Assembly (NCBI GenBank): GCA_027038175.1 | Contig: JALVYB010000079.1 | Coordinates: 1,215-65,214, forward strand | Length of the DNA stretch: 64,000 bases | Source of the DNA: a candidate division WOR-3 bacterium | Lineage (GTDB): Bacteria; Hydrothermota; Hydrothermia; UBA1063; CAJXJZ01 | Direction of reading: 5' to 3' | Shown: positions 9,816 through 50,630 of the stretch, in pieces | Position numbering within the stretch: the stretch's first letter is position 1 | Layout of the letters: every line of letters begins with the position of its first letter | Notes under the pieces: generated by a model | The model's database searches: none | What the model was told of the DNA's origin: nothing | What the model saw: the letters and a program-made list of their open reading frames with translations, nothing else | Made by a program: the position numbers and the translations under genes

Positions 9816-10223
9816 ATGTGGGAGGTGAATTTAGTGGTGAGAGAGAAGATTAAGTATAGAGGTAGAGGATTGAAGACTGATAGGTGGTTCTACGGGTACT
9901 TTGTAAAAAGCTACAAAAAGAACAAAAACGGAGATTGCTTCATAGTCGATAGTGATGGACGTTACCACAATGTGAGATGTGATACTATCGGGGAGTTTAT
10001 TGGCAGAAAAGATGCTAACGGAAAAGAGATATATGAAGGAGACGAGGTTCGGGTAGAAGACGTTAAAAAAGAGGGCATAGTCAGGTACAATGAAGTTTAT
10101 TGCGAGTGGTATGTTGAGTTTGAAGATGGGCTTACTTTGGATTTCGGTATGGTTGCCCTAATGAATTACAAGGTAAAAGTATTAGGAAATATCTATGAAG
10201 AGACGGGAGGGATTGAAAAATGA
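9816..10223 (+). CDS. YopX-like phage/plasmid protein
   Basis: KYRGRGLKTDRWFYGYF...IGEFIGRKDANGKEIYEGDEV...YKVKVLGNIYEE matches the YopX-domain signature (conserved IGNIYE C-terminal block). Confidence 0.5.
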   Translation: MWEVNLVVREKIKYRGRGLKTDRWFYGYFVKSYKKNKNGDCFIVDSDGRYHNVRCDTIGEFIGRKDANGKEIYEGDEVRVEDVKKEGIVRYNEVYCEWYVEFEDGLTLDFGMVALMNYKVKVLGNIYEETGGIEK

Positions 10224-12268: not shown

Positions 12269-13009
12269 GTGATTTTGGTGTGGAGTGAGAAAATTAATGT
12301 GGGTGTGAAGGAGAACAGAAGGTTGAAGGATGCTTTGGATTTGATTTTCACGAACAAGGCAAAGGGAGAAACATTAGAGGATAGAAGGTTTGAGATACAC
12401 ATATCTGATTTGGTTAAAGAATGTCCAAGGGAGGCTTGGATTTCAAAGAAATATCCTGAAGATATTGAGCTTCAGAGGAAATCGGTACTAAAAATGTGGG
12501 GTGGCAAAAAGCTTCATGAAATAGAGTTAAGCAGGGAGCATGAAGTGGAACTGAGGTACAGGTTTGCGAAAGAGCCGTATGGGGTTATTGTTGGAACCGT
12601 TGATGAAATAATAAATGACATAGTTATAGACAAGAAATTTTATGCAAAGCTACCGAGAGTCCCTTACAAGCAACACGTGAAGCAGGTGAGTTACTATATG
12701 GCATTACTTTGGAGACATGGGAAGAAAGTACGGATGGGAGCCATATACTACATAAACAGGAGTAGCTTTGCCACAAGAGTATTTACATTCACCATGAGCC
12801 AAGAAGATTTAGAAAAAGCATTTGAAGAAATGGTAGAGAGAGCATCTTATCTGAGACAGGCTATAATTCACAACTGGGTTCCTCCTAAAACCAATAACGA
12901 AGTTGAGTGTAGCAGGTGTGCCTTCAAAGATATTTGCAAGAGTATAGACACAAAGAAAAACCTCGCCAATGCAAATAGGGAAAAAGATGAATATGAGATA
13001 GGCATATAA
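12269..13009 (+). CDS. Cas4-like / RecB-family PD-(D/E)xK nuclease with C-terminal Cys cluster
   Basis: GTVDEIINDIVIDKK is an E...D-x-K-like core. KQVSYYMALL is a QxxxY motif. C-terminal CSRCAFKDIC plus N-terminal VKECP gives four Cys, as in Cas4/DUF83 Fe-S nucleases. Confidence 0.5.
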   Translation: MILVWSEKINVGVKENRRLKDALDLIFTNKAKGETLEDRRFEIHISDLVKECPREAWISKKYPEDIELQRKSVLKMWGGKKLHEIELSREHEVELRYRFAKEPYGVIVGTVDEIINDIVIDKKFYAKLPRVPYKQHVKQVSYYMALLWRHGKKVRMGAIYYINRSSFATRVFTFTMSQEDLEKAFEEMVERASYLRQAIIHNWVPPKTNNEVECSRCAFKDICKSIDTKKNLANANREKDEYEIGI

Positions 13010-13026: not shown

Positions 13027-13383
13027 ATGCTGAAAATAGAGACAAAGAAGGTAAGAAGCAATACGCCTAGTAGGAAAACAACAATATACCTGCGTGATTA
13101 CATTTACGATGAGATAAAGCGAAGGAACATAAACTTATCTGGGACTTTGAGAAAGGTTCTTGAGAGAGAACTCTTTGTTCCCTTTCTAGTTGTAGAGCCT
13201 TCAATTATTGATGGGAAAAATATAAATGTTGGGAGTATTATTCTTATTCCTAAAAGCAAGGTAAATGTTGTGAAGAAGGACAGAAGAGGAAAATACATAC
13301 TATATAAGAGAGAGAAGGTAAGAGTCAAGGAAATACCTTGGGAAGTGGTTGATCGAAAAAAATATTTTTACGTGTTTGATTGA
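13027..13383 (+). CDS. ribbon-helix-helix (CopG-like) domain protein, paralog of 43109-43453
   Basis: N-terminal TTIYLRDYIYDEIKRR...LSGTLRKVLEREL is RHH-like. The C-terminal half aligns with 43109-43453 (PFLVVEP...GSIILIP...YFYVFD against PLFVVRV...GSVILLP...YVYVYE). Confidence 0.5.
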   Translation: MLKIETKKVRSNTPSRKTTIYLRDYIYDEIKRRNINLSGTLRKVLERELFVPFLVVEPSIIDGKNINVGSIILIPKSKVNVVKKDRRGKYILYKREKVRVKEIPWEVVDRKKYFYVFD

Positions 13384-13505
13384 TGGACGATGTATATATG
13401 TAGCAAGTGCTTTATTACGTAAATCTCTAAATATTGCAATACATCTTGCCAATAAGGAAAAAAGGAAAATCCACTCCTTTTTAGATAGCCAGACAAATTC
13501 TTCGC

Positions 13506-15653
13506 TCATATCTTTGCCTTGTGTCCTTTTTTTAGGTAGAAAACACCGAAACCGAAGAACCCTTTTTCCCTGAGTACTTTTGAAAGCCATCTAAGGTCTT
13601 TTATCATTCTCTTGAATCTTGTTATTATTGGCTTTGCTTCCCCATAGGTAAATAATCTAACCTTTTTCACACCTTCTCTGGCTATTATTAGAACCTCTCC
13701 AGCTTTCCAGAACCTTATGTCTCCTATTTCTATTGGCTTGTACTCCAATTTATTGTATTCGGAACCGATAACTTTTGAACCTCCTTTGGGATTTTCGGAA
13801 GATACTGAAACGGGTCTAATTGTCCATATATTCCTTGAGCCTACTTCTTCACTAACAAACTTCCTGCTTCGCTCATCTCCAAGAGAGAACGCAAATATGA
13901 ACCTATGCCCAGATACAACAGCGTCAGTTACCTCTTTCCCATAGGTGCTTTCTACCTGTGTTAAAGCCTGTATACCTATCACGCTGGTTACGTTCAAGCT
14001 TCTACCATAATTCACCAAGTTTTGGTAAAGTGTCAGTTGAGGTACGTTTTGGAACTCGTCAATTATGAAATACTTGCGTTGATTTTCGGTTCCTTTAGAT
14101 AAAGAGTATTCTATAAGCCTGTCTATAAGCATTCTGTAAATCGGTGCAAGAACATCTCCCTTACTGACATCGTACTCTATGAATAACCTTCTCCCGTTTG
14201 GATTCTTTATGTATTCTTTCATGCTTATTTGTTTGAACCTTCTCGATTCGGGGCCAAACGTTCCTTGGAATATTCTTCTGAACTGTGTGCCTAATACTGC
14301 CCAAACTGATGCAGCCATTTTTTCCGCTTGAGGATTTAAATACGCAGCCACCAATTTTAACTCTTTGTACTTGTTAAGCATTTCGTAAGTGGTCGCATAG
14401 TTGTTCTTCATCACCATATCATACAAATCTGCATTAGTTGGAAGATAATCTTCAAATAACGGCTTCTGGGGGGGAGTTGGCTTGTTTTTGAGCATTTCTT
14501 CTCTTTCTTTATCATCTACTGCTACTTTTAGATCCTCTTCCCATTCTTTTAACTCTTTTTCGTAATTGTCCATAGCAAGTTCCCATTCTTCGTAATCCTC
14601 TTTAAACATCTCTAAAGCATCCTTGTACATAACGTAAATTATTCCCTCTAAAACCTGCTGTGCTGCGTAGTTCCAAAACTTGTCTTGCGAACTCTTTGTC
14701 ATCTCTTTGAAAAGTTCGCCTGTAATCTGGGCTATGGAAATGTAAGGGTCTTCTGCAAGTTCTTCATCAGATATACCTTCCTCTTTTAACTTTTCAATAA
14801 CCTCATCCAAAGAAAGTGGCTCTTTTTCGTTGCTCCTCTCTTTTATCACTTCTTCCATAACATCTCGCATTTTCTCCTGCACTTTTAGAGGGTCTTTTGG
14901 TGCTATTTCCTTAAAAATATTCCAAGCGTACGTGCTTTCGTTAGGGCGTATTGAAAGAACGACATCCTCTTTTGTTCCAAATTCTTTCAGATAGTCTCCT
15001 TTTGGATCAAAAATCACCCACGCATAATTGTCTCTCGTCGGAAATTGAGCCACCAGCTGCTTTATGAATTCGGTTTTACCACTTCCAGCTGCACCCAGAA
15101 CCATTATTCCTGTATTTATCCTTCTCAGAACAATTGTTCCATCATCTCTTGTTGGAACAACCAAGTGATTTTCGTCATCTACCAAATCCCTGAACTTGTG
15201 ATGCTTAACCTTGTAGTAAGGCCTCAAAAATGCCAGAACAAAGAACATATATGGTATGGTTATGACTAAAAACATCGCTAAGTTCCACATAAAATCCCTC
15301 TGCACCAGCGGATAAAAATAAGGTAAGATGAACTCGCTCCAGAATCCCCAGAATGGTGCCTTTGCAGGTATGAATGGAAACACTAAAAACATAAAAAATA
15401 AAATATTCAAGGCTACTAACCAAACCTGCCAATATTTGTCCTTGTGCCATACCCTCTTGTAAGGGTTATCAAAGTTCGTTGGCTCTCTCTTGTACAAGTG
15501 ATTTAGAATTAGTGGCAAGGTAAAGATAATGGGGGCAAACAACAATAACCCGAAGGTGCCAAACCATGCCATCTTATTAAGCTCCCTGTTCTCCTCTATA
15601 TACTTGGCTCTCTCAACATTCACGTATTCAAGAGGTGTTTTCTCAATTTTCAC
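13506..15653 (-). CDS. TraG/VirD4-like type IV coupling protein (FtsK/HerA-superfamily ATPase) with N-terminal TM segments
   Basis: Hydrophobic N-terminus. Walker A VLGAAGSGKTEF. Walker B IIDEFQNV. Downstream GRSLNVTSVIGIQALTQVESTYG resembles the T4CP block R..G....QS..QL...YG. Confidence 0.55.
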   Translation of the reverse strand: MKIEKTPLEYVNVERAKYIEENRELNKMAWFGTFGLLLFAPIIFTLPLILNHLYKREPTNFDNPYKRVWHKDKYWQVWLVALNILFFMFLVFPFIPAKAPFWGFWSEFILPYFYPLVQRDFMWNLAMFLVITIPYMFFVLAFLRPYYKVKHHKFRDLVDDENHLVVPTRDDGTIVLRRINTGIMVLGAAGSGKTEFIKQLVAQFPTRDNYAWVIFDPKGDYLKEFGTKEDVVLSIRPNESTYAWNIFKEIAPKDPLKVQEKMRDVMEEVIKERSNEKEPLSLDEVIEKLKEEGISDEELAEDPYISIAQITGELFKEMTKSSQDKFWNYAAQQVLEGIIYVMYKDALEMFKEDYEEWELAMDNYEKELKEWEEDLKVAVDDKEREEMLKNKPTPPQKPLFEDYLPTNADLYDMVMKNNYATTYEMLNKYKELKLVAAYLNPQAEKMAASVWAVLGTQFRRIFQGTFGPESRRFKQISMKEYIKNPNGRRLFIEYDVSKGDVLAPIYRMLIDRLIEYSLSKGTENQRKYFIIDEFQNVPQLTLYQNLVNYGRSLNVTSVIGIQALTQVESTYGKEVTDAVVSGHRFIFAFSLGDERSRKFVSEEVGSRNIWTIRPVSVSSENPKGGSKVIGSEYNKLEYKPIEIGDIRFWKAGEVLIIAREGVKKVRLFTYGEAKPIITRFKRMIKDLRWLSKVLREKGFFGFGVFYLKKGHKAKI

Positions 15654-15664
15654 TTCTCATCACC

Positions 15665-16381
15665 TCAAAACAAGCTCAACTCTCCTATCAAATCTTCAAG
15701 AGTCAAATCCTTGGGTGCTTCTCTCTCAATCTCCTTTTCCTCTTCTTTTATCTCATTATCCAGCTCCTCAGACTTCTTCTTTATTATGGCTCTAATCTCA
15801 CGGCTTTTTGATTTTCCAAGTATCGCCTCGTAATGATTTACCTCCTCACCCAGCACGGAATAAGCAGATGCTCCAATTGGCTCTCCAAAAACCTCTCTTG
15901 CAACCTTGTTAAGACGATATATGTTCGCCTTGTTAAACATTATTTCAAACTTGTCATTGGCAACCATAACCACATGAGAGTGCGGGTGAGCAGTATTGTA
16001 ATGCAATCCATACGCAAATCTGGTCGTTACCAAATTTCTATCTTTTATATAACGCAACAGCGTTTCTCTCGTTTTTTCTGATAAAAAGCGTGGGTCATTG
16101 TAGTTTAACGGCGAAAAAATAATCATGCGGGTTATGTAGTTTCTCCTGTACGCCTCCTCCATATCGTAAAGGTTCTGGGCATCAAGCTTTCTCCCTGTTG
16201 CCCAAAATATAGTCTTGTATTCTGGCTTGTTGTTTTCAGTTTTTCTCTTGATGTACCACAACAACCTGAAAAGCATATTGTTCCCGTTTCTCTCTAACGT
16301 ATAAACTCTATTTTTTATAATCATCAACCCACCTCCTCTAACTTCCTTATGGCATCCACTATTGGCCCTATTTTCCTCCAT
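15665..16381 (-). CDS. HUH-type endonuclease (rolling-circle Rep / relaxase-like)
   Basis: NTAHPHSHVVMVAND contains a HuHuuu motif. Candidate Tyr segments lie downstream. Overlaps an upstream RHH-type gene in relaxosome-like order. Confidence 0.45.
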   Translation of the reverse strand: MEENRANSGCHKEVRGGGLMIIKNRVYTLERNGNNMLFRLLWYIKRKTENNKPEYKTIFWATGRKLDAQNLYDMEEAYRRNYITRMIIFSPLNYNDPRFLSEKTRETLLRYIKDRNLVTTRFAYGLHYNTAHPHSHVVMVANDKFEIMFNKANIYRLNKVAREVFGEPIGASAYSVLGEEVNHYEAILGKSKSREIRAIIKKKSEELDNEIKEEEKEIEREAPKDLTLEDLIGELSLF

Positions 16382-17154
16382 CTTTTATTGACTCTATCCC
16401 ATATAGAACCATCTGAGTACCTCACCCTCGTTTCCGTCACTTTGATGGGACTAACTCCCTTGACAAACGGCGGATCAGCCATCTCATCATAAAGCAAACT
16501 CTCTCCTTCTTCAACATTTTCATCTTCTTTGTTTTCCTTGCTTTGTGGATTGTTCTGTACCTCGTTCTGATTAGCAACTGCTTTATCGTGCGTGGCTCTT
16601 CTCCGTTCAGTACCTGTATTATTTCTGATAACTGCTTTTTGCGTTTCTTCCGTGTCGTATATGGTATAATTCTCCCTGCCATCTTGCGATTTTGCCTTGC
16701 TTTCATACTCTTCGTAGTAGCTGGAAATGTCCCCTATATCTTCCTCATCTTCATCATCTAAATAAGAAGGTTCTTCTTGTGGGAAAATATTTTCCATTAT
16801 GCTCCCATTTACAATATTTCTCTCAGAAAACGGATACGCCTCTCTTAACTCTTCGGCTGAGTTATACTCTAACAATGATATGCGTTCTTCAATATCCTCC
16901 AATAATTCTGACTTGAATTTCTCCAAAACTTCCCTCTCAAACCTGTCTAAAATATGTTGGAGTGAATTTTCAAGCCAAATCTCTATGTTGTACTTCTTTA
17001 TCTCTTTCGATTCCCTTTCCATTATCCATCCTCTTAACGCTTCAATGATTATGCTCTCTACTCCTCCCTTCCCAACCTCTTTTCTCACCTTCTCAACCAT
17101 CTCTTTGGGTATCTTTACCTTGAACTCCTCAAATTCATCATCCATGCCCTTCAC
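16324..17154 (-). CDS. acidic protein with N-terminal RHH-like domain (candidate relaxosome accessory / TraY-MobC analog)
   Basis: KIPKEMVEKVRKEVGKGGVESIIIEALRGW has an RHH pattern. A long D/E-rich linker follows. The ORF overlaps the start of the HUH gene. Confidence 0.4.
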   Translation of the reverse strand: MKGMDDEFEEFKVKIPKEMVEKVRKEVGKGGVESIIIEALRGWIMERESKEIKKYNIEIWLENSLQHILDRFEREVLEKFKSELLEDIEERISLLEYNSAEELREAYPFSERNIVNGSIMENIFPQEEPSYLDDEDEEDIGDISSYYEEYESKAKSQDGRENYTIYDTEETQKAVIRNNTGTERRRATHDKAVANQNEVQNNPQSKENKEDENVEEGESLLYDEMADPPFVKGVSPIKVTETRVRYSDGSIWDRVNKRWRKIGPIVDAIRKLEEVG

Positions 17155-17588
17155 CTCTCCTTTTCACCTTTCAAGTTATATCCAGCTTCTTTAATTAATC
17201 TCCAGATAATGTCCTCGTATGTTTCCCTCTTTTTTCCTATGTTAGCAAGTGCGTCTCTTAAAGCAACCGTGATTCTAATCGAAGTTACATCTCCTTTCAT
17301 ACTTCATAAATATGCACCATTATATTTAAACATATCTAATATGCGTAAATATGTTTGATATATTTGTTATGTATTATTATGCTCAAATATGCTTAGGTAT
17401 ATATACCTCATATACATATATATGTTTACATCAGTAAACAAGCTTATGTATAACTGCGAGGATTTTGTCTGGCTAATGGAAAGTTTCGACGAAACTTTCC
17501 ATTAAAAACCTTTATAAAAGCAATAAAAAATAAAAAGAAAAAAGGGTAATGCCTCAAAGGTGGGTCAAAGTAATTTCGTTCAGTAGAT
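17155..17588. promoter_or_regulatory. 434-bp AT-rich intergenic region containing the 29-bp palindrome AATGGAAAGTTTCG-A-CGAAACTTTCCATT (17478-17506); candidate oriT/promoter/terminator region
   Basis: 14-bp perfect arms. ATATG-rich repeats. The region lies between the pilin-like gene stop and the RHH/HUH operon start. Confidence 0.35.
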
Positions 17589-17975
17589 TTAACCACCATT
17601 AACTATCCAACCAAACCATAGGAACATTACTCCAGATACAACGGCTCCTATCACTATGTCTATTTCTATCGCTATCTTGAATATCTTTTTGCTCTTTGAT
17701 TCTGCTTGTGGCTCTTCTTCTACATGAGCCTTGAAAACATAGATAGCCCACACTATCCAAGGTAAAGCCATCAGTAATACTGAAGGAGCCACTATTACGA
17801 ACCAGTATATCCTGTTCAAAAACTCTTTCCAAGTCACATTACCTTGCTGGTCATTAGTAGCAGTTGCTGAAACGCTGTAATAACTCACTTTGGGTTGAGT
17901 AGCAGCAGAAACTTGCGTCGCTGCCACCATCCCGAACAACAATATCAATACCAATACCATCACAAACTTTTTCAT
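17589..17975 (-). CDS. pilin-like small membrane protein (signal peptide plus two TM helices; TrbC/VirB2-like architecture)
   Basis: MKKFVMVLVLILLFGMVAATQVSA signal peptide. Hydrophilic segment, then two hydrophobic helices (WFVIVAPSVLLMALPWIVWAIYVF and IVIGAVVSGVMFLWFGWIV). Stop/start is contiguous with the giant surface gene. Confidence 0.4.
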   Translation of the reverse strand: MKKFVMVLVLILLFGMVAATQVSAATQPKVSYYSVSATATNDQQGNVTWKEFLNRIYWFVIVAPSVLLMALPWIVWAIYVFKAHVEEEPQAESKSKKIFKIAIEIDIVIGAVVSGVMFLWFGWIVNGG

Positions 17976-20900
17976 TCTTTTCCACCTCCCATATCGGGTT
18001 TCTCCTCTATCTCTACATTGCTGGTAATAACCGATATGTGTGCTATGCCCTCAGAATCAATTTCCTTCGCAAGTAATCCCTTACCAACAGCGTACTCTAT
18101 CACAAACTTCACATCTTGCTTTGTGGCACCATCCACACGCTTTGTTATTACATCTAAAAGTGCCTTGTATTCAACGTTCTTCTTCCTGCCAAGATACGCC
18201 ATGACTTCATCAAGAATCTCTTTCTCCATCGCTGTTAATCCGTCCTCCTCATCCTCTTCTTTCTCCTTCTTACCTCTCATCAAAAATAACGCAGCTAACA
18301 CTCCTGCTATTATTAAAGGTAAGGCTATCGCAATTACTATAATGCCAGGGAAACCAGAATCACTTGATGGGTGATGTGTTGTACTACTTGAAGTGGGTTT
18401 TGCGAACACGCTCCAAGAATACTTCACAACATTCACACCATCGCTGATCTTCAAAATGACTTCATGCGTTCCTTGAGGTAGGCTCACTTTCAAGAACTGG
18501 TCATGCCCTACTACTCTTCCATCGATTATCCACGTGTAATTAACGGGATTTCCATTCGGATCTTTGGCATTTGCATAGAACGTGACATAATTGTTAGCGG
18601 TGACGTTCTGTGGAACATTATACTGTACCAAACGGGGTGGATAATTGTAATCAACTATTATTTTAGCAGTTGCTTCACCGACATTTCCTGCCATGTCATA
18701 AGCATAGATGTGTATGTAATACGTGTAGTTATTGGCAAATTTGAGATGTAGATAACTTGCGTTTCCTGACAAGTTATACTGCTTCCAGAATGCTAAATTC
18801 ATTTCTCCTAGCGGTGTGCGGTAAATCTTCACTATTATCTTTGCAATGAATGGGCTGTTTGGATCATTGGCACTCCAATCTATCGTGTAGTTAAAGGTCT
18901 TTGTGAGAGTGACGTTTGAACCACTCGTAATTTTCACAACTGGCTTAACCCAATCTACTATCACTTGGCCAAGAGTGACTATACCGCCGTGATTACCTGC
19001 CCTATCGTAAGCCATAGCTCCTATATGATAAACTCCCTGCTCCTTGAAAGTTACGGTTACAACTACCGTGATATTCGTTGAGTGGCTTCCATTAACGTAA
19101 TAAACTCCTATGTTCTCCCATCCTCCTCCAAGGAACCTCATATATATCTTGAAGAAGGATATTCCTGAGCCTGTATCATAGCCATTAACCTTGAACGTTA
19201 GATTGTGTTGATTTGTGTATTTGGGCAACTCGGTTGCATTAACTACTGGTGGTGTTGTATCTACTATAACCCATGTACTTGTTACATTGCTCTCCACTCC
19301 AACATTATTTATGAATATCGCTTTAATTGTATAGTTTCCATCTTGTGGTGCATCTACAACAATCTCACTTTTTAGAGCCATTGTCTCCCATGCCTTGTCT
19401 CCAATCTTAATTTTCATTTCCACTACTTTGAATACTGGGTCTGTTGCATTGATATAAACCGTGAACTTTACATTACTTGTAATGTGGGAATTCACTGTTA
19501 GCGTTCCTGATGGGCGATGCTGTATCTCATAAATCCATGTCTTAACCGATGAGATGTGTCCCCAAATGTCCTTGACATAAATTTCAATAGTGTAATTCTG
19601 TTCTTGGTCTGGGAGATTTACAACAACCTCTTTGCTACTGCCCCACACAATTTCTCCTCCATTAACTGAATATCCGTATCCTCCAACTTTCGTGTTGTCT
19701 GTGGCATTTACCACTATTGTTGTCTTATTCGTGAACGAAATGTAGTGTTGTACCCAAATGCTCTCGATTGTCGGCGGGGTTATGTCCACATAAACCTGCT
19801 TCTCTAAACTTGCCGTGGAACCAACATTATCCTTCACCGTGACATTTATGGTATATTCACCACTTTGAGAGAGATGCAGTTCGTAAGTGTCTTTGTAATC
19901 TATCCATCCGCTATTAAACACAACAGCACCTGCAAGGAGTGCCTGTATCTCCATTTGTGATATTCCTGCGTTAGCAGTTGCGTTAATGAGTAGAACCACA
20001 TTACCCCATCCAACTCCCTCGCTTGTCTCGTTCTGTATGGTGAAACTCAATTTCGGTGGCCCTAGCGTAACCTTGAATGATGCTGAATATATTTCACTAA
20101 CATGGCCAACGTAATCTTCAAACTGAACTTGAATGTAATGCTTTCCTATTGTATTGACATGAACTGTAAAGCTTGTGGTGTAGTTCAACCAATTACTCCA
20201 TGTGCTGTTGTCCAAGCTGTACCTGAAATAAGATACCCATGTGCCGTTATCCGTTGCATTCAATCCTATCGTTACATTTAGAGAATCATAAACGCTTTTC
20301 ACTATAATTCTTCCATAAGGTGGTTCAGTATCAACGTAGAAGGTCAGGGTATATGCCTTGCTCACGTGTCCTACTCCATCTTTTAATTTGATCAACAGGG
20401 TGTTCTTTCCTTCCTTACTACTCATTAACTGAAAGCTATGAGTGTAAGCAATGTCTTTCCAAGTATCACCATTAAGAGAGTAGATTATATCTTTAACTCC
20501 AGTCACATTATCCGTGGCATTTACCCAAACCACTACCTCTCCAGTCTTGCTATATTCTGGCACAACATTATAACTCGTAATATACGGTGGGTACAAATCA
20601 AGAGTAAATGCGTACGAATAAACCTGAGAGGTATTGTTAGCCACATCCATAAATTGCACGTATATGGTGTGCTGTCCCTCTTTGTTGGGCATTATTATCT
20701 TCGCTGAATAGGAGCCATCTTTGGGTGCGTTAGGTATTGCGTACCAAACACTCCAAGAACCATCATCCATCTTGTATCTGTAATATGCCACACCATAGTT
20801 ATCTGAAAGCTGCATATCTAATTTTGCGGTAGAATTTCCAACGACCGATGCACCATTATTTATACTTATGCTGCCTGTTGGAGGTGTGTTGTCTATGAAG

Positions 20901-23900
20901 AAGGAAACGTCTATCGATTTGCCTTCCATATTCCCAGCTGAATCTTCTCCAACCAAAGCAACTCCATACCATCCCTGTTGGGTCAAATTCATCCATACGT
21001 ATTGTGGAGTTCCGTTATATTTGCCATAGAGTACCCAAGTTATGTTGTCTTGGGTGTAATAAACATAAATACATTGAATGCCCGTACCTCTCTTAAGGAT
21101 TTCCACGTGGATCTTAACCGTCTTGTTAAAATATTTCCCATTTACATAGCCAGTTACTCTCGGTACTGTGGTACTGAGTTGGAAAGTCAAAACGTTGCTT
21201 TTTGCTGTGTTTCCTGCCTTATCCATAGCAACGACGTACCATGAGTAATTACCGTCGTTTAAAGATATAGAAGTCGTGTTTTCTGTTAAATTCTTGTATA
21301 TCACGTTTCCATTATCGGTATTTTTGATTACAAGCTCATAGCCTTTAAAGTTCTTATCTGTGGAAGCAGTCCAAACAAAAGTAACAACTCCATTTCCTCC
21401 CACAAGTCCTGATGGTTTGACAGCTTTCGGCGTGGTTGGTGCAACGGTATCTATGTTCAAAACATAGGTTTCATTGCTTCTTCTTGTGGCTCCATCATTA
21501 TTCACAGCAAGAACGTACCAAGTTATCGAATATTCGCCAGTAGGCAAAGAAGCATTGTATTTTGTGTTTGTCGTGGTAATGTTGTGATACGCTTCATCAT
21601 AATAAAGCACCAAAATGTAATCTTTTAACCCTACATTTTCATCAACGCTTTGCTCCCATTCAAATGTGACTGCGGTTTTGTTTGTGTATATATTATTTGA
21701 AGGCAAGATTAAATCAAATGGGGTCGGTAAAGATGTGCTAACAGTGAATTCCCAAGCCCCATTTGAGTCCGCAATCTCGTTTCCTACATTATCTACTGCT
21801 ATCATCCACCAGTACCAAACTCCATTTGCTAACTGAACCGTTATGTTATAATGGGTAGTGGATGCTTTTGTTATATTAAATATCCACCTTGCACCACTAT
21901 AATCTAAGAGATTCGTCGGCTTGGTTTCGCTCAACACTAAAATATAATGAGAGAACCCAGAACCACTATCTCCTGATGCAGTCCAATTGAACCCAGGGGA
22001 TGAGTTCTTTACAATGACATCTTGCTGCGTCTTATAATCTACACTAACCAACGAAAAGCTGTTTGGAGGTGTGGTATCTACAATAACACTCTCTTTCGAC
22101 ACTCCTTGATTTCCTGCCTTATCTTTAGCATATACATATATTGTGTAGGTTCCGTCAGAAACAACATTCCCGTTGGAGTTTTTGCCGTCCCAAACCCAAG
22201 AAAGTGATGTAGAATAACTGGTTGTAGTGTGCGTAATTACCAATGTTCCAGAGGATGAATAAATCTTAATTGTGAATGTTGCCTCTTCTGAAGCAGTTGC
22301 TGAAATTGTTAGCGTGTCTTTTATTCCATCACCATTTGGCGAAAAAGCGTTTAGGGATTCACTCACACTAACACTTGGAGGAACAGTATCCAAAGTGAAG
22401 TCAAACACGCTTGATTTTTCAGAATTCCCTACTTTATCATAAGCTACAACATACCACCAGTAAACCCCATCTCCTGCAAGAGTAACCGATTGCGAAGTTG
22501 AAGTTGTGTTAAACTCTTTCTTAAATCCACTTCCATTATAAACCACAAGTATATAATATCCTATACCAGAGCCGCTATCTGATGCTGCTTCCCAAGTGAA
22601 TGTTATAGTTGTTTCGTTTGTATAGGTATTGTTGGCAGGATAAGTTAGAACTGCTGCCGTCGGTGGTGTGTTATCCACATTAATTGTAATCTGTGCAGAA
22701 CCATTGTTCCCTACTTCGTCTGTTGAATAAACATAAATTACATACGAACCATCTGGCACCTTTGTAGTATCCCAAGAATATGATATTGAACCACTATTTG
22801 ATTTCTGAACCCAGCCAACATTCTTTATATATATGGCCATATTTGCCACGCCAGAAACACTATCGGTAGCAGTTGCTGAAATGGTTATTGTTCCTTTCAC
22901 CCATTCATTATTCGTTGGGTTTGTAATTGTAATTGTTGGGGGTGTGTTATCTACCGTGTATGTTTTACTGGCAGAGGCAGTTAAATTAACCTCATCGTAA
23001 GCAACTGCTTTAACTGTGTGGTTTCCGTCTGAATAGGATGTTGTATCCCATGTGTATGTGCATGGCGAAGATGTAAATGTTTTGATAAGAGTTCCATCAA
23101 TATACAACTCAACCTTGACTAGTTTAACATTATCACTAGCCGAAATCTGGATCGTAACATTTCCATTAATATAAGTCCCAGTTGGTGCAGTTATGCTAAC
23201 TGAAGGCGGTGTGTTATCTACATAATATGTTTTTGAAGTACTTGATGTTAGCCCTGCTCCATTATATGCTACTACTTCAACTGTGTGGTTTCCGTCTGAA
23301 TAGGATGTGGTGTCCCAACTATATGAATAAGGAGATGCAGTAGCAGTCCCTACCTCAGTTCCGTCTATATAAAACACCACTTTTGTTATCCCTGAGACAC
23401 TATCACTTGCTGATGCCTCTATGGTTACTGTGCCATGAACGTATGTTGATGTTGGAGAAGCGATTGATACACTAGGTGGAGAGTTATCAACCGTATATGT
23501 CTTGGTAACAGATGAAGATAATCCCACCCCATTATATGCTACTGCTTTAACCGTATGTGAGCCATCTGAGTAAGATGTAGTGTCCCAACTATATGAATAA
23601 GGAGATGTTGTCATAGTGGTGATTTCTGTGCCATCTATATACAACACTACTTTTGCTATTCCTGAAGTGCTATCTGATGCGGATATATCTATGGTTACTG
23701 TGCCATGAACGTATGTTGATGTTGGTGCGGTTATAGAAACTGATGGTGGGGAATTATCTATCGTTATGGTTATGCTTGTTTGTTTAGAATTCCCAGCCTT
23801 ATCATAAGCAACTGCGTAGATAGTATGTGTTCCATCACTCACAGAAGAAGTGTCCCAACTAACACTATAAGGAGATGTAGTAGATGAACCTATCTCATTT

Positions 23901-25795
23901 GAAGATGTTACTGAATCATAATAATACACAACTTTAGCCATACCAGAACCCGAATCTGAAGCGGAAACCTCAATAGTGATAGTTCCAGTTACATAAGCTC
24001 CGTTAGACGGCTGAGTGATGCGAACACTTGGGGGTGTGTTATCGATATAAATTGTTATTTTAGTAGAAGCCATATTGCCCACATTATCCGTGGCATTTAC
24101 CCAAATATAATATGTTCCATCTGATACTTGCGTGGTATCCCAACTATATGATATTGACGTAGAAGAAGATGTCTGAACCGTTCCTAACGTGGATATAGCT
24201 ATGCTCATTGAAGCCACGCCTGAACCCGTATCTGATGATGTTGCGGAAATGGTTACTGTTCCTCTATACCATGCGTTGTTGGAAGGAGAGCTAACGGATA
24301 TTGTTGGTGGTGTGTTATCTACATAATATGTTTTGGATGTGGTATATGTGTTTCCTGCACCATCCACAACAGTTACTTCCACCGTGTGAGAGCCATCGGC
24401 TACTTGCGTGGTGTCCCAGCTATACGTTTCTGAAGCACTTGCTGAATTAACAGTCCAACTATCAACTTCATTTCCATCTATGTAAAGGGTTATTGTAGAT
24501 ACTTCAAAATTGTCCGAGGCCGATATATCAATAGATACCGTGCTATGAATATAAGTACCCGTGGGAGCGGTTATACTTGCTGTTGGTGGTGTATTATCTA
24601 CCGTTACATTTTCGTATGCTTTCTGAACGTTTCCTGCTTTATCTTCAGCAACTGCTATGAGGGTATATTTTCCATCTTGGAGAGAGGTTGTATCCCAAGA
24701 AACAGAATAAGGAGATGATGTTACACTTCCTATTTCTTGCTGGGCCGTAGAACCAGCAGGTTCATAATAAAAAGTCACACTTGCAATCCCCGAGGTTGCA
24801 TCACTTGCCGTAGCTTCAACAGTAACTGTGCCTTTGACGTAAGAACCATCAGAAGGACTGGAGAACGACACGCTTGGGGGAGTATTATCAACTGTAACAT
24901 TAATGCTTGTCTGCTTTGTGTTTCCAACCTCATCGTAAGCAACTGCGTAGATAGTGTGAGAGCCATCACTCACCGCAGTAGTATCCCAAGAAACTGAGTA
25001 AGGGGATGTAGTTGATGAACCTATCTCATTTGAAGATGTTACTGAATCATAATAATACACAACCTTGGATACCCCTGAACCTGAATCTGATGCAGAGGCC
25101 TCCAACGTAATCGTGCTTCTAACATAAGCTCCATTTGAGGGAGAAGTTATACTCACCGTTGGTGGTGTGTTATCTACATAATATGTGGCATAAGCATAGG
25201 CGGGAGGTACTGGAGTTCCGTCAGGTGCATTTTGTGTATCAACCTCAACTTTAATTTTATGACTTCCATCCGAGTAAGAGGTTGTGTCCCAACTATATGT
25301 TTCGGTTGCAGTATTGCTGTTGGGACTCCATACTTTAACATTCGCTGAATCTATATAAAGGTATATAGCACTTATTTCTAATCTAACCCATGTACCTGCA
25401 CTAGAATCATAATACTCTCCCCCTGTTGCAGATATATCTATGTTTACAGTTCCACCAACCCAAGAATTGTTTGCAGGGCTGGTTATTTCTGCTGTTCCTG
25501 CTTGTGTTTCTGTGGTAGTCAAAGAGGGGGCATTCCCTGAAAATGCTGAAATATCCAACGCCGTATTTCTAATGATACCTGCATTCATCAAATTGTCTGA
25601 AATTGCTTGTGCGGACTTCTTAATGCCACCTATTGTTATATGTATTACTCCATTTTCAAAGAAGATGTGTGTTTGAGCTTTCTTTTGAGTTTGTTGGATT
25701 TGAACTGTTGTACTAGGTGAAGCAAATACCAACGCTGCAAACGGAGAAGATAACATTAGCAACACGATTATAAAAATGAGAAACTTTCCTTTCAT
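17972..25795 (-). CDS. giant (2607-aa) cell-surface protein with more than 15 Ig-like/CARDB-like repeats, N-terminal signal peptide and C-terminal TM anchor with acidic tail
   Basis: Signal peptide MKGKFLIFIIVLLMLSSPFAALVFA. Recurring roughly 90-aa units (VDNTPPSVSI..PSNGAYV.GT.TIEASASDS.SG...V.YY..). The C-terminus has the TM segment PGIIVIAIALPLIIAGVLAALFL, then KEKEEDEEDG. Confidence 0.8.
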   Translation of the reverse strand: MKGKFLIFIIVLLMLSSPFAALVFASPSTTVQIQQTQKKAQTHIFFENGVIHITIGGIKKSAQAISDNLMNAGIIRNTALDISAFSGNAPSLTTTETQAGTAEITSPANNSWVGGTVNIDISATGGEYYDSSAGTWVRLEISAIYLYIDSANVKVWSPNSNTATETYSWDTTSYSDGSHKIKVEVDTQNAPDGTPVPPAYAYATYYVDNTPPTVSITSPSNGAYVRSTITLEASASDSGSGVSKVVYYYDSVTSSNEIGSSTTSPYSVSWDTTAVSDGSHTIYAVAYDEVGNTKQTSINVTVDNTPPSVSFSSPSDGSYVKGTVTVEATASDATSGIASVTFYYEPAGSTAQQEIGSVTSSPYSVSWDTTSLQDGKYTLIAVAEDKAGNVQKAYENVTVDNTPPTASITAPTGTYIHSTVSIDISASDNFEVSTITLYIDGNEVDSWTVNSASASETYSWDTTQVADGSHTVEVTVVDGAGNTYTTSKTYYVDNTPPTISVSSPSNNAWYRGTVTISATSSDTGSGVASMSIAISTLGTVQTSSSTSISYSWDTTQVSDGTYYIWVNATDNVGNMASTKITIYIDNTPPSVRITQPSNGAYVTGTITIEVSASDSGSGMAKVVYYYDSVTSSNEIGSSTTSPYSVSWDTSSVSDGTHTIYAVAYDKAGNSKQTSITITIDNSPPSVSITAPTSTYVHGTVTIDISASDSTSGIAKVVLYIDGTEITTMTTSPYSYSWDTTSYSDGSHTVKAVAYNGVGLSSSVTKTYTVDNSPPSVSIASPTSTYVHGTVTIEASASDSVSGITKVVFYIDGTEVGTATASPYSYSWDTTSYSDGNHTVEVVAYNGAGLTSSTSKTYYVDNTPPSVSITAPTGTYINGNVTIQISASDNVKLVKVELYIDGTLIKTFTSSPCTYTWDTTSYSDGNHTVKAVAYDEVNLTASASKTYTVDNTPPTITITNPTNNEWVKGTITISATATDSVSGVANMAIYIKNVGWVQKSNSGSISYSWDTTKVPDGSYVIYVYSTDEVGNNGSAQITINVDNTPPTAAVLTYPANNTYTNETTITFTWEAASDSGSGIGYYILVVYNGSGFKKEFNTTSTSQSVTLAGDGVYWWYVVAYDKVGNSEKSSVFDFTLDTVPPSVSVSESLNAFSPNGDGIKDTLTISATASEEATFTIKIYSSSGTLVITHTTTSYSTSLSWVWDGKNSNGNVVSDGTYTIYVYAKDKAGNQGVSKESVIVDTTPPNSFSLVSVDYKTQQDVIVKNSSPGFNWTASGDSGSGFSHYILVLSETKPTNLLDYSGARWIFNITKASTTHYNITVQLANGVWYWWMIAVDNVGNEIADSNGAWEFTVSTSLPTPFDLILPSNNIYTNKTAVTFEWEQSVDENVGLKDYILVLYYDEAYHNITTTNTKYNASLPTGEYSITWYVLAVNNDGATRRSNETYVLNIDTVAPTTPKAVKPSGLVGGNGVVTFVWTASTDKNFKGYELVIKNTDNGNVIYKNLTENTTSISLNDGNYSWYVVAMDKAGNTAKSNVLTFQLSTTVPRVTGYVNGKYFNKTVKIHVEILKRGTGIQCIYVYYTQDNITWVLYGKYNGTPQYVWMNLTQQGWYGVALVGEDSAGNMEGKSIDVSFFIDNTPPTGSISINNGASVVGNSTAKLDMQLSDNYGVAYYRYKMDDGSWSVWYAIPNAPKDGSYSAKIIMPNKEGQHTIYVQFMDVANNTSQVYSYAFTLDLYPPYITSYNVVPEYSKTGEVVVWVNATDNVTGVKDIIYSLNGDTWKDIAYTHSFQLMSSKEGKNTLLIKLKDGVGHVSKAYTLTFYVDTEPPYGRIIVKSVYDSLNVTIGLNATDNGTWVSYFRYSLDNSTWSNWLNYTTSFTVHVNTIGKHYIQVQFEDYVGHVSEIYSASFKVTLGPPKLSFTIQNETSEGVGWGNVVLLINATANAGISQMEIQALLAGAVVFNSGWIDYKDTYELHLSQSGEYTINVTVKDNVGSTASLEKQVYVDITPPTIESIWVQHYISFTNKTTIVVNATDNTKVGGYGYSVNGGEIVWGSSKEVVVNLPDQEQNYTIEIYVKDIWGHISSVKTWIYEIQHRPSGTLTVNSHITSNVKFTVYINATDPVFKVVEMKIKIGDKAWETMALKSEIVVDAPQDGNYTIKAIFINNVGVESNVTSTWVIVDTTPPVVNATELPKYTNQHNLTFKVNGYDTGSGISFFKIYMRFLGGGWENIGVYYVNGSHSTNITVVVTVTFKEQGVYHIGAMAYDRAGNHGGIVTLGQVIVDWVKPVVKITSGSNVTLTKTFNYTIDWSANDPNSPFIAKIIVKIYRTPLGEMNLAFWKQYNLSGNASYLHLKFANNYTYYIHIYAYDMAGNVGEATAKIIVDYNYPPRLVQYNVPQNVTANNYVTFYANAKDPNGNPVNYTWIIDGRVVGHDQFLKVSLPQGTHEVILKISDGVNVVKYSWSVFAKPTSSSTTHHPSSDSGFPGIIVIAIALPLIIAGVLAALFLMRGKKEKEEDEEDGLTAMEKEILDEVMAYLGRKKNVEYKALLDVITKRVDGATKQDVKFVIEYAVGKGLLAKEIDSEGIAHISVITSNVEIEEKPDMGGGKE

Positions 25796-25796
25796 T

Positions 25797-25988
25797 TTAA
25801 TCTACCTCCTTTGGTATTTCAATCTTTTTCAAAACAATTTTGGATCCGCTTCCGTTGTTTTCCACTTTCAATAAGAATATGTCGTTTTGCTGGAAATTTT
25901 GCTCTTTGCGTATTTTTGATGGTATGGTAATCCTGCCCTGTGAATCCATCCTCACCCACTTTATCTTTTCATCACCTTCACCACTCAT
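25797..25988 (-). CDS. AbrB/SpoVT/MazE-type swapped-hairpin DNA-binding protein
   Basis: VRMDSQGRITIPSKIRKEQNFQQNDIFLLKV is a canonical AbrB-fold signature. Its stop abuts the giant gene start (25797 against 25795). Confidence 0.55.
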   Translation of the reverse strand: MSGEGDEKIKWVRMDSQGRITIPSKIRKEQNFQQNDIFLLKVENNGSGSKIVLKKIEIPKEVD

Positions 25989-26218: not shown

Positions 26219-26836
26219 ATGAGAGCATATAATTTAAATATGAACGCCGACGGGTTAAATGGAGGTGGTGGAGCAGACGAGACTTTGCAGTTTCTCACGC
26301 CATTAGAAGTAGATATGTTGGCTGAACAGATTTACAGAAAAGAGACAAAGTACCCTTACAGAGAAATAATCTATGGATTACTATACACGGGAATGAAATA
26401 CCATGAACTTGTTGATTTCCTGAAAAATCCAAATTGGTTTGATAGAAAAAAGAAAATCATACACATGGGCGACGTTAAAAGAAACAACAGGGTAATTTCT
26501 CACGCCAGAACAATATACCTCTCATCCCAAGGGGTTATTTACGTGGATAATTTCCTCAGATATACAAAAGATTTGCCAAATGTGAATATTTTTAGTTACC
26601 TTCTAGCATACTGGGGCAAGAAGATGGGAAAGCCGTGGATTCGTGCAAGGGTTCTTCGCAATACTTGGAGTTGCTGGTTAGCAATTGCTTACCCACACCA
26701 CATCCCAAAGATTCTGGTGAGCTTGGGCTTTTCATCATCAACGCACTTGCTTAAATGCCAGAGAAGATATTTTTCGGAAGCAGATTTGAATGAAATAAAA
26801 TTAAGAACTCTTGGGTGGAGCGGTGCTGAATGGTGA
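26219..26836 (+). CDS. tyrosine-recombinase paralog, diverged (box-I Arg replaced by Lys: TGMKYHEL)
   Basis: Colinear with the 27195 copy (YREIIYGLLYTGMKYHELVDF, ...RNTWSCWLAIAYP...LRTLGWSG). Catalytic Arg-I is not conserved and the C-terminal GH..Y region is altered. Confidence 0.45.
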   Translation: MRAYNLNMNADGLNGGGGADETLQFLTPLEVDMLAEQIYRKETKYPYREIIYGLLYTGMKYHELVDFLKNPNWFDRKKKIIHMGDVKRNNRVISHARTIYLSSQGVIYVDNFLRYTKDLPNVNIFSYLLAYWGKKMGKPWIRARVLRNTWSCWLAIAYPHHIPKILVSLGFSSSTHLLKCQRRYFSEADLNEIKLRTLGWSGAEW

Positions 26837-27249
26837 AGCCTATGAAAGACGAAAAGTGGAGAGAAGTAACTTACGGATTGTGGGAAGGAAAGTGGGGTAA
26901 GATAAAGGTGGGCAAGGAGATTGTGTTTATGATTGACTATGTGGGATTGATGCAAGTTACTGACAAGTTCTATATCACGATTCACGGGAAGTTGTACGCT
27001 GAAAAGAACAAGGAGGGAAGGTGGGAGCTGAAGGTTTATTGGTATCCTTCAAAAAAGAAGCAGGTGCTTCACACGACAAGTGATTTTTGTGAGTTAATTT
27101 ACGTTGCGAACAGGCTAGTTGATTATCAGATGTACAAATATTACAAAAGATGGGACTGGAAACCAATAAAACTCAAAAAATGCTGGAAAGGTAAATGGAA
27201 GAAGGGATTTTTGACTACGGACAAGTTGATCAGGCCCAAGGAGGTGTGA
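26830..27249 (+). CDS. hypothetical basic protein
   Basis: 139-aa K/W-rich ORF between two recombinase paralogs. Confidence 0.35.
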   Translation: MVKPMKDEKWREVTYGLWEGKWGKIKVGKEIVFMIDYVGLMQVTDKFYITIHGKLYAEKNKEGRWELKVYWYPSKKKQVLHTTSDFCELIYVANRLVDYQMYKYYKRWDWKPIKLKKCWKGKWKKGFLTTDKLIRPKEV

Positions 27250-27848
27250 TTGTGAAAATCATTATGAAGCAGGGAATAAGAATTTTCAGACCCTCAGAAT
27301 TGGATTCCCTGATTGATGGTGTCGTGAACATTTGCACCAAGAGAAGTTGCGAGTATATGTGGTTTGAAATACTGAACGCTCTTCTCTACACGGGGATGAG
27401 GTACGTGGAATTGCAGAGGTTTGCTGGACATAAAGAATGGTTTGATAAAACCACAATGAGTATCTACCTGCCCAAAGAGGCATCCAGAAAGAAAAAGAGG
27501 ACGATGCCAGACAGATACGTGTATTTATCCTCACAAGGAGTGGTAATTGTTGATAACTTCCTGAGAAGAGTTAAAAAAGTTCCGCAACTGCGAAGTGCAA
27601 ATTGGATTTTGAAGAAAGCTTCTGAAAAGACTATTGGTTCAAAGGGGGTAAGTGTAAAATCCTTTCGCAAGACGTGGGAATCGTGGCTCGTAGTCAGTTA
27701 TCCAAATAGCATTCCTTTGATTTCCATGTCCCAAGGACACACAGAGCTTGTGAGTTTAAAACATTACCTCAACATTCCTTTCTCAAAAGAAGACATAAAG
27801 GAAATAAAGGTAAGAACTGCTGGGTGGGGTGGATTTAGAAGCGTGTAG
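27195..27848 (+). CDS. small tyrosine recombinase/integrase (apparently intact)
   Basis: Box I LYTGMRYVELQRF. KSFRKTWESWLV. SQGHTELVSLKHYLN, where the final Tyr is the catalytic candidate. 217 aa with an N-terminal methionine. Confidence 0.6.
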   Translation: MEEGIFDYGQVDQAQGGVIVKIIMKQGIRIFRPSELDSLIDGVVNICTKRSCEYMWFEILNALLYTGMRYVELQRFAGHKEWFDKTTMSIYLPKEASRKKKRTMPDRYVYLSSQGVVIVDNFLRRVKKVPQLRSANWILKKASEKTIGSKGVSVKSFRKTWESWLVVSYPNSIPLISMSQGHTELVSLKHYLNIPFSKEDIKEIKVRTAGWGGFRSV

Positions 27849-50623: not shown

Positions 50624-50630
50624 TCTCAAG

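Follow-up and report, generated by a model that had tools for sequence, protein, structure and literature searches.

Conjugative transfer has been shown experimentally for the Thermococcus plasmid pT33-3 and for Sulfolobus plasmids of the pNOB8 type, which encode VirB4- and VirD4-like ATPases and no recognisable relaxase (PMC12857230). Archaeal conjugative plasmids at large have been described as encoding neither a recognisable relaxase nor a recognisable pilin (Beltran et al. 2023; PMC9905601). Recent reviews state that no relaxase has been identified in archaeal conjugation, and those of 2025 still ask which relaxases archaeal systems use. An earlier survey, in which one such enzyme had been found, counted exactly one archaeal integrative conjugative element (ICE), in Aciduliprofundum boonei, and listed pNG500 of Haloarcula marismortui as conjugative, the sole haloarchaeal plasmid of this kind (Guglielmini et al. 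2011; PMC3158045). Here we describe a minus-strand gene region at positions 13506-25988 of a stretch of 64,000 nucleotides of contig JALVYB010000079.1, the whole of which we call the window. It lies on a circular plasmid that, unlike pT33-3 and the pNOB8-type plasmids, encodes both a putative relaxase and a pilin candidate.

Conjugation in monoderm bacteria makes use of dedicated adhesins, as illustrated by PrgB of the enterococcal plasmid pCF10, which also encodes the accessory protein PcfF, the relaxase PcfG, the coupling protein PcfC and the VirB3-like PrgI.

We read the region as the DNA transfer and replication (Dtr) module of a self-transmissible conjugation system of the bacterial type, relaxase-dependent and operating on single-stranded DNA, and we give this reading a probability of roughly 0.8. 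A surface module, consisting of genes for an AbrB-type regulator, a giant adhesin and a pilin-like protein, would be joined to it. A first-pass annotation made from the letters alone had proposed a conjugation-like module encoded by six minus-strand open reading frames (ORFs); all six were found where it placed them (Table 1), with domain E-values that exclude chance by a wide margin. The points on which it had made its proposal depend, namely the type of the ATPase, the arrangement of the relaxase motifs, the presence of VirB4 and the conservation of gene order, each came out in favour of conjugation.

The coupling ATPase, the relaxase and the accessory proteins

The last gene of the module encodes a genuine type IV coupling protein (T4CP), so called because Pfam, NCBIfam and PDB searches agree. 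In Pfam the protein matches TrwB_AAD_bind (2.6e-35; 122.5 bits against a cut-off of 20.5), TraG-D_C (1.9e-14; 54.1 bits against 22) and T4SS-DNA_transf (2.7e-11; 43.4 bits against 20.1). The VirD4-like family CD1115 comes first in NCBIfam (1.1e-24), followed by TraD (5.9e-19), and the sequence matches in PDB are TrwB entries only (8e-15). A packaging ATPase of the HerA/FtsK type had been named beforehand as the alternative to a coupling protein; the coupling-protein domains far outscore DUF87/HerA, whose match (2.1e-10, 41.5 bits) is restricted to the P-loop region. Three N-terminal transmembrane (TM) segments at residues 28, 74 and 121, a Walker A motif (GAAGSGKT, residues 187-194) and a Walker B motif (YFIIDEF, residues 528-534, invariant in 9 homologs) uphold the earlier description of a membrane-anchored Walker A/B ATPase, and the T4CP-like block noticed at the time as GRS...QALTQ...YG is present as NYGRSLNVTSVIGIQALTQVESTYG. 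In every related locus the T4CP gene adjoins that of the relaxase.

This neighbour is a putative relaxase of the HUH type, resembling MobA/VirD2 (MOBQ/MOBP) proteins by fold and motifs. Its family matches include RlxS (1.7e-5) and MobP1 (3e-3) in NCBIfam and MobL (0.017) in Pfam. The six orthologs taken from syntenic loci all match both PF03432 and MobL at sub-threshold or marginal levels, the best values being 1.6e-5 and 1.8e-6. When the ortholog profile was compared with PDB, the top match was 9qq7, a relaxase containing HYNTDNIHVH; this entry and the window family share the residues HYNTD..H.H and, in the N-terminal part, the motif Y-I-x-R. The putative catalytic residue is Tyr24, within LLWYIKRK, and the putative metal triad consists of H108, H115 and H117 within LHYNTAHPHSHVV. 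All six closest orthologs have Tyr24, which is also nearly invariant in an alignment of 12 representatives that includes one haloarchaeal sequence, where it is absent solely from an N-truncated member. R66, H108, P114, H115, H117 and E148 are invariant in this alignment and position 110 is Asn or Asp. No tyrosine downstream of the His motif is conserved among the 12 sequences, Y155, Y173 and Y184 being variable. Whether the protein carries its motif tyrosine as a relaxase or as a Rep had been left open in the first-pass annotation; because the tyrosine precedes the His motif and none is conserved after it, the arrangement is the relaxase permutation and we call the protein a relaxase and not a Rep.

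An AlphaFold2 model (pLDDT 86.3) has relaxase topology and fold. MobA of R1162 ranked first in the comparison of this protein with known enzymes (10.0), ahead of NES (9.6), MobM (8.4), TrwC (8.0), the relaxase domain of F TraI (7.5), F TraI in the relaxosome (7.2) and, in seventh place, a Rep engineered into a relaxase-like circular permutation (7.1). With the MOBQ relaxases MobA (R1162/RSF1010) and NES (pLW1043) the protein shares an N-terminal putative catalytic tyrosine followed by a three-His metal site, as well as a minimal domain of about 180-200 aa. It differs from them by an identity of 10-14%, by a family score below the Pfam threshold, by Asn in place of the usual Asp in H-x-D, and by an acidic helical tail that forms its C-terminal part where a fused primase or helicase domain is missing. 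Rep-Arvir (PMC13107129) was considered as the identity of the nuclease and rejected, its Rep_trans fold being unrelated to the HUH protein.

The family is small. An exhaustive phmmer search over 1.84 billion representatives, with E up to 1e-3, returned 12 cluster representatives, one of which comes from the haloarchaeon Halorientalis brevis and is annotated as a relaxase domain protein; a word-indexed homolog search with the relaxase retrieved the query itself only. Wherever the source could be identified it was archaeal, comprising DHVE2/Thermoplasmata loci and the one haloarchaeon.

Two putative DNA-binding proteins of the ribbon-helix-helix (RHH) type are encoded ahead of the relaxase. The larger, of 273 aa, starts with an RHH-like region, continues with a long, variable and acidic linker and ends in a conserved domain of about 45 aa whose signature is P-x-V-x-G...Y-E/S-D-G-S-I-W...W. 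Its family alignment contains seven orthologs, each encoded directly upstream of the relaxase, that of A. boonei T469 included. The gene of the second, of 49 aa (MKGDVTSIRITVALRDALANIGKKRETYEDIIWRLIKEAG), is flanked by those of the pilin-like protein and of the 273-aa accessory. An acidic RHH protein had been announced by the first-pass annotation: the ortholog of an Aciduliprofundum contig (locus L009) matches PF01402 RHH_1 above the cut-off (3.7e-6) and supports this at the level of the family, whereas neither of the two window proteins has a significant RHH_1 or other Pfam match; both nonetheless align with the family and show the strand-helix-helix pattern. The AT-rich spacer upstream of these genes holds a perfect inverted repeat (15-bp arms, TAATGGAAAGTTTCG/CGAAACTTTCCATTA) at 17474-17504, three AT-rich repeats of 20 nt at 17337-17427 and a promoter-like TTTAAATATA box, features that make it a candidate promoter and origin of transfer (oriT).

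Conserved gene order and the operon of a candidate adhesin and pilin

Gene starts were re-set from the gene caller on Logan contig L001, which is identical to the window. Two ORFs predicted previously are present and had been drawn too long: the HUH gene begins at M20 of the ORF 15665-16381, and the acidic protein starts at 17145 and not at 17154. The genes had been presented as one head-to-tail run; they do form a minus-strand series, which is in reality divided into two tight operons and includes the additional 49-aa RHH gene that had been overlooked. Operon 1 is AbrB-adhesin-pilin and operon 2 is RHH-RHH-relaxase-T4CP, with stop and start codons overlapping or nearly abutting within each: the AbrB-like stop lies 1 nt ahead of the adhesin start, and 11 bp separate the relaxase stop from the T4CP gene. 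An ORF at 13300-13590 is probably spurious. Just downstream of the T4CP gene and on the opposite strand, 9816-10223 and 12269-13009 (+) encode a YopX-family protein and a Cas4-like PD-(D/E)XK nuclease, accessory genes of phage or plasmid type.

A search of a 5.8-billion-protein index found 13 relatives of the T4CP, including that of A. boonei T469 at 32% identity. In a scan of species-representative genomes the closest loci belong to metagenome-assembled genomes (MAGs) of DHVE2, Aciduliprofundum and Thermoplasmata; haloarchaeal plasmids are farther off, and distant T4CP relatives also occur in Lachnospiraceae and Oscillospiraceae MAGs. The comparison of gene order called for at the outset gave a clear result: the order RHH-relaxase-T4CP is kept in five other loci (L002, L007, L008, L009 and L010) and in A. 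boonei T469, and RHH-like-relaxase-T4CP recurs beside VirB4 on the Haloarcula plasmid pNYT1. L009 also carries a VirB4 homolog. Relaxase matches in PLSDB are confined to haloarchaeal plasmids, where the gene is annotated "relaxase" and stands beside TraD and a VirB4-like gene.

Two of these relatives deserve closer comparison. The element of A. boonei T469, from the same archaeal lineage (DHVE2), encodes an RHH accessory (163 aa), a relaxase (172 aa) and a T4CP (593 aa) in the same order. Its core lies about 3.5 kb from a tyrosine integrase and the element is integrated, in contrast to the circular Orc1/ParA plasmid of the window, and within 10 kb there is no giant adhesin, pilin-like gene or VirB4. 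It may be the ICE counted in the 2011 survey (Guglielmini et al.; PMC3158045). Plasmid pNYT1 of Haloarcula taiwanensis has a Cdc6 backbone and the order VirB4-like gene, two small ORFs, relaxase, T4CP; the products of the two small ORFs were judged by eye to have an RHH-like N-terminal strand-helix-helix pattern, and the relaxase carries the Tyr motif LVDYIRR and the motif H-x-N-T-x-x-P-H-x-H. Its identity to the window proteins is about 27% for the relaxase, 28% for the T4CP and 23% for VirB4. On pNYT1 the Dtr genes abut VirB4 and have no adhesin-pilin operon upstream, unlike the arrangement in the window element.

The regulator that opens operon 1 matches PF04014 MazE_antitoxin/AbrB (4.2e-6; 27.1 bits against a cut-off of 24.7), and in L002 a gene of similar size (67 aa) occupies the equivalent position before the adhesin. 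The adhesin itself is covered by Ig-like domains (Big_7, 2.3e-153 with 10 significant stretches; Big_3_3, 3.8e-60; Big_13, 6.7e-53), has a signal peptide, TM helices at residues 1 and 2477, a composition rich in Thr, Ser and Val and 57 N-x-S/T sequons. The domains are diverged from one another: no tandem repeats were found in the adhesin DNA, and a BLASTP self-comparison gave the full-length self-match only. Homologs of 956 aa (L002) and 2189 aa (L008) are encoded at the equivalent position. A cytoplasmic tail of about 100 aa (residues about 2507-2607; 17972-18300, minus strand) follows the TM helix; it has no Pfam match, the alignment with the L008 homolog extends through its last residue, and the tail might link the adhesin with partners in the cytoplasm. 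By its conserved synteny and by analogy with monoderm systems, the 2607-aa protein is a candidate mating adhesin. The giant surface protein of the first-pass annotation thus stands as far as its signal peptide and Ig repeats are concerned, while a role in mating goes beyond that evidence.

An ATGA overlap joins the adhesin stop to the start of the pilin-like gene and points to translational coupling of the two. The pilin-like product of 128 aa is made of a signal peptide, a TM helix, a charged loop (EEEPQAESKSKK) and a second TM helix, and the AlphaFold2 model, of low confidence (pLDDT 62), shows a signal helix and a helical hairpin (49-86/89-125). The window protein has no direct match to PF18895 T4SS_pilin in Pfam. 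A family of five members (P0030-P0034) was gathered with a three-sequence profile, and two of the five match PF18895, at best with 2.3e-6. The subfamily of the window protein aligns with these two in hhalign (81% probability, E 1.2e-5, 116 columns); the two subfamilies are connected by BLASTP at E 1e-3, align over their full length and are both placed after an adhesin gene. The protein is therefore probably a VirB2-like pilin of a type IV secretion system (T4SS). The pilin-like protein proposed earlier is confirmed in its signal peptide and two TM helices, and its identity as a pilin is supported transitively.

A competing explanation keeps only the RHH-RHH-relaxase-T4CP genes as a transfer module and regards the AbrB-adhesin-small membrane protein operon as unrelated surface cargo that benefits the host, for instance by attachment to minerals or other cells. 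Large Ig-repeat surface proteins are frequent as cargo, the loci of A. boonei T469 and of Aciduliprofundum MAGs (L020, L009 and L010) have the core and lack an upstream adhesin or pilin-like gene, and in the window the two operons are parted by the 288-bp spacer with its own promoter-like box; the missing direct Pfam match of the window pilin-like protein is also compatible with cargo. However, three elements with T4CPs of no more than 38-46% identity all carry the adhesin immediately before the core, with the pilin-like gene beside it in L002 and L008 as well. The matches of two pilin-family members to T4SS_pilin, the overlap of the adhesin and pilin genes and the known use of dedicated adhesins such as PrgB in monoderm conjugation likewise speak for a connection with transfer. 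On balance we find the cargo explanation unlikely, and regard the odds that the adhesin and the pilin act in mating as even. The unusual linkage of adhesin, pilin and relaxosome pointed out by the first reading is real, the AbrB-adhesin-pilin operon being an uncommon extension of a known kind of element.

Mating-pair-formation genes, replicon and probable host

The mating-pair-formation cluster begins with a gene for a large membrane protein with TM helices at residues 1, 656 and 698, hence a large extracellular part and two C-terminal TM helices, and with 14 N-x-S/T sequons; its C-terminus shows weak matches to PF18895 T4SS_pilin (E 0.013) and to the NCBIfam pilin-like family Mbov_0395 (E 0.73). 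The polytopic protein that follows was expected to be VirB6-like, an assignment that agrees with its seven predicted TM helices and its position and not with any family match. The third protein (259 aa) matches positions 33-272 of the 894 of NCBIfam VirB4_plasma (6.4e-6), the VirB4-like family CD1110 (2.6e-3) and, weakly, PrgI (0.019). The VirB4 homolog whose absence nearby had been named as damaging to conjugation is present on the same replicon: it begins about 300 bp past the window end, following the VirB6-like and VirB3-like genes, and its 615-aa product matches PF19044 P-loop_TraG (1.5e-11; 44 bits against a cut-off of 25.8) and the VirB4 structure 4ag5 in PDB (1.4e-9). Directly after VirB4 lies a gene for an AAA+ ATPase of 556 aa (PF00004, 3e-26; L004 17910-19580, window-equivalent about 66145-67815), conserved in L008 at 34% identity, which may supply the transfer apparatus with additional energising or unfolding activity. 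Weak NCBIfam matches to the VirB4 of a Mycoplasma ICE and to Clostridioides CD1110 and CD1115 give indirect hints of an MPF_FATA or FA class for the mating-pair-formation system.

The overall design follows the monoderm logic of pCF10, with a small DNA-binding accessory, a membrane T4CP, analogues of VirB4, VirB6 and VirB3, the last with its weak PrgI match, and a counterpart to the large mating-aggregate adhesin. It departs from pCF10 in that the adhesin is built of Big_7, Big_3_3 and Big_13 Ig repeats and held by a TM anchor in place of an LPXTG wall anchor, in having a VirB2-like pilin candidate, and in its archaeal replication and partition backbone.

The best-characterised archaeal systems with VirB2-, VirB4- and VirB6-like proteins, Ced and Ted, import DNA and have no relaxases (PMC9905601), and the T4SS-like genes could accordingly be seen as an apparatus for DNA import or for protein secretion and not for export by conjugation. 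We consider this very improbable. The combination of relaxase, RHH accessories and VirD4-type coupling protein is characteristic of elements that export their own DNA, the genes are on a plasmid and not on a chromosome, and the NCBIfam score of the T4CP for CedB is 6e-5, on the P-loop only, against 1e-24 for the VirD4-like family.

The replicon is circular. Two independent assemblies, of 94,105 and 94,018 bp, are related to one another by circular permutation, which implies a circle of about 94 kb. Bases 1-55 of the 94,018-bp ENA scaffold (L018) reproduce window positions 5686-5740 exactly in reverse complement, and its last base corresponds to window position 5686 by coordinate arithmetic, collinearity being assumed rather than checked base by base; the terminal overlap of 55 bp puts the circle at about 93,963 bp. 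The window encodes Orc1/Cdc6, the archaeal marker recognised by the first-pass annotation, and ParA. No tRNA genes were found in it, no integrase turned up in Pfam scans of its approximately 57 ORFs, and PHROG scans of 16 proteins from the module and the 42-54 kb block revealed no capsid, portal or credible terminase. From this combination we conclude that the element is a plasmid. Its archaeal context, also proposed earlier, is corroborated by relatives in DHVE2/Aciduliprofundum genomes, among them the cultured isolate A. boonei T469, and the plasmid probably belongs to deep-sea-vent archaea, that is, Thermoplasmatota of the DHVE2/Aciduliprofundum type.

It might be objected that the element is bacterial, such as a plasmid of Firmicutes type misassigned to archaea, as the nearest named families (CD1115, CD1110, Mycoplasma ICE VirB4 and MobL) come from monoderm bacteria and the more distant T4CP relatives include those in Lachnospiraceae and Oscillospiraceae MAGs. 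The Orc1/Cdc6 initiator, the restriction of PLSDB relaxase matches to haloarchaea and the fact that every close relative of the T4CP and the relaxase is found in DHVE2/Thermoplasmata or Halobacteria, with the A. boonei T469 isolate and complete haloarchaeal plasmids among them, leave this objection scarcely credible. A viral or rolling-circle module, with a HerA/FtsK-type packaging ATPase and an RC-Rep initiator, was rejected and has a minute chance of being correct: in its favour are the weak, P-loop-confined matches of the T4CP to DUF87/HerA and to a PHROG terminase (3.6e-7) and the nearby YopX and Cas4-like nuclease genes, against which stand the far higher scores of T4CP-specific domains, the relaxase topology and fold of the HUH protein, the PHROG scans of 16 proteins, with no capsid or portal and with those weak terminase matches only, Orc1/Cdc6 and ParA, which point to theta-type plasmid replication, and the presence of VirB4.

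Table 1. Position and basis of assignment of the module, mating-pair-formation and replication genes (window coordinates).
Feature	Position	Strand	Basis or remark
AbrB/SpoVT-type small DNA-binding regulator, 63 aa	25797-25988	-	PF04014 match; first gene of adhesin-pilin operon
Giant Ig-repeat surface protein, 2607 aa	17972-25795	-	Signal peptide, Big domains, C-terminal TM helix
VirB2-like T4SS pilin candidate, 128 aa	17589-17975	-	Signal peptide and two TM helices
AT-rich spacer between the two operons, 288 bp	17301-17588	.	Inverted repeat, AT-rich repeats, box
Small RHH protein, 49 aa	17151-17300	-	Gene call in Logan contig L001; strand-helix-helix pattern
Relaxosome accessory candidate, acidic, 273 aa	16324-17145	-	RHH-like N-terminus; synteny with relaxase
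Small putative HUH relaxase, 219 aa from M20	15665-16324	-	Motifs, family matches, predicted fold
Type IV coupling protein (VirD4/TraD/TrwB family), 715 aa	13506-15653	-	Pfam, NCBIfam, PDB
Orc1/Cdc6 replication initiator	55192-56613	+	TIGR02928 1.8e-26
ParA	58236-58970		ParA/AAA_31 about 3e-10
Large membrane protein, 728 aa (longest ORF) or 725 aa (gene-called)	59770-61956	+	TM topology
Polytopic membrane protein, 386 aa, VirB6-like by topology and position	61969-63129	+	Seven predicted TM helices
VirB3/PrgI-like two-TM segment, then domain resembling VirB4 N-terminal part	63126-63914	+	NCBIfam, PrgI match
VirB4 ATPase gene proper, 615 aa	64286-66133 (window-equivalent, outside window)		PF19044, PDB 4ag5

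The remainder of the window offers further observations. Two ORFs at 26219-26836 and 27195-27848 (+) match one and the same ORF in L008 and L009, loci of Thermoplasmata and Aciduliprofundum (41% and 60% identity), and hence form a paralogous pair, to which no family could be assigned. A radical SAM protein (PF04055, 3.4e-21) is encoded at 28963-29883 (+), with neighbours spanning 27924-31262; it is 62% identical to the product of an L002 gene that precedes the adhesin operon there and is carried by the opposite strand, and the block is conserved backbone or cargo. From 31320 to 41309 (+) run five consecutive overlapping ORFs of 640-715 aa, without Pfam match, paralogy being detectable only between the last two (29% identity). 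The 323-aa product of 46680-47651 (+) has no Pfam match and matches a PHROG family labelled transposase (2.3e-19), and 50604-51413 (+) encodes a DUF5131-type protein according to precomputed matches, L002 having a DUF5131 gene as well. GC content varies between 33 and 41%, and the GC skew is strong, reaching 0.45 in 2-kb windows, and tracks the coding strand.

A proposed transfer route and its significance

In the route that we propose, the two RHH proteins would bind and bend oriT, probably located in the spacer at 17301-17588. The 219-aa relaxase, with a metal held by H108, H115 and H117, would then nick one strand, and the 5' end would become covalently joined to it via Tyr24. The membrane-anchored coupling ATPase would recognise the resulting relaxase-DNA nucleoprotein, with the C-terminal tails conserved in the relaxase and in the accessory protein as candidate signals for recognition, and would hand it on to the VirB4/VirB6/VirB3-like channel whose genes occupy 59.8-66 kb. 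Under AbrB-type control, the upstream operon would provide a VirB2-like pilin and a membrane-anchored giant adhesin that make and stabilise the contact with the recipient; such contact between donor and recipient by the adhesin would be analogous to the adhesin-assisted mating of monoderm bacteria.

Several points weigh against a conjugation system as described here. The relaxase scores below the Pfam gathering cut-off for PF03432 Relaxase (1.0e-3; 19.8 bits against 24.6), and the top Foldseek match of its model, MobA, is weak (E 0.042). The VirB6-like call has no sequence support, library scans that included NCBIfam having given no family match, and the Dtr module is separated from the mating-pair-formation cluster by about 44 kb. 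The inverted repeat, or oriT hairpin, is not conserved in the related loci, for which reason the place of oriT can only be inferred. The host assignment is based on MAG binning and on one isolate that has only the integrated relaxase-T4CP core. Finally, transfer by any member of the group is a prediction drawn from the genes, none having been observed. The identity of the T4CP and of VirB4, the motifs and fold of the relaxase, the conserved gene order and the circular replicon nevertheless lead us to retain conjugation at the probability given above.

The novelty of the element should be kept in proportion. The ICE of A. boonei and a conjugative plasmid of haloarchaea were already part of the 2011 survey, and the haloarchaeal homologs already bear the label "relaxase" in GenBank; the element is for these reasons a member of a known but overlooked kind. 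Among the elements found, it is the most complete of this barely described kind and not categorically new. Its unusual features are the joined AbrB-adhesin-pilin operon and an archaea-restricted clade of relaxases with sub-threshold scores. A single circular archaeal replicon here assembles a nearly complete set of bacterial type, with a putative relaxase, RHH accessories, a T4CP and VirB4, together with VirB3-like and VirB6-like proteins, a VirB2-like pilin candidate and a giant adhesin. The plasmid and its DHVE2 and haloarchaeal relatives may represent an archaea-specific clade of minimal MOBQ-like relaxases associated with paired RHH proteins, VirD4 and a VirB2-like pilin, and in some members with a giant Ig-repeat mating adhesin, a proposal that we consider as apt to prove right as wrong. 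If it is true, at least part of the Euryarchaeota would conjugate by the classical, relaxase-piloted single-strand mechanism, and the question of which relaxases archaeal systems use would find an answer. The residues Y24, H108, H115 and H117 and the cultured relative in A. boonei T469 make this idea testable, and the latter organism would then be a culturable test bed for archaeal conjugation.

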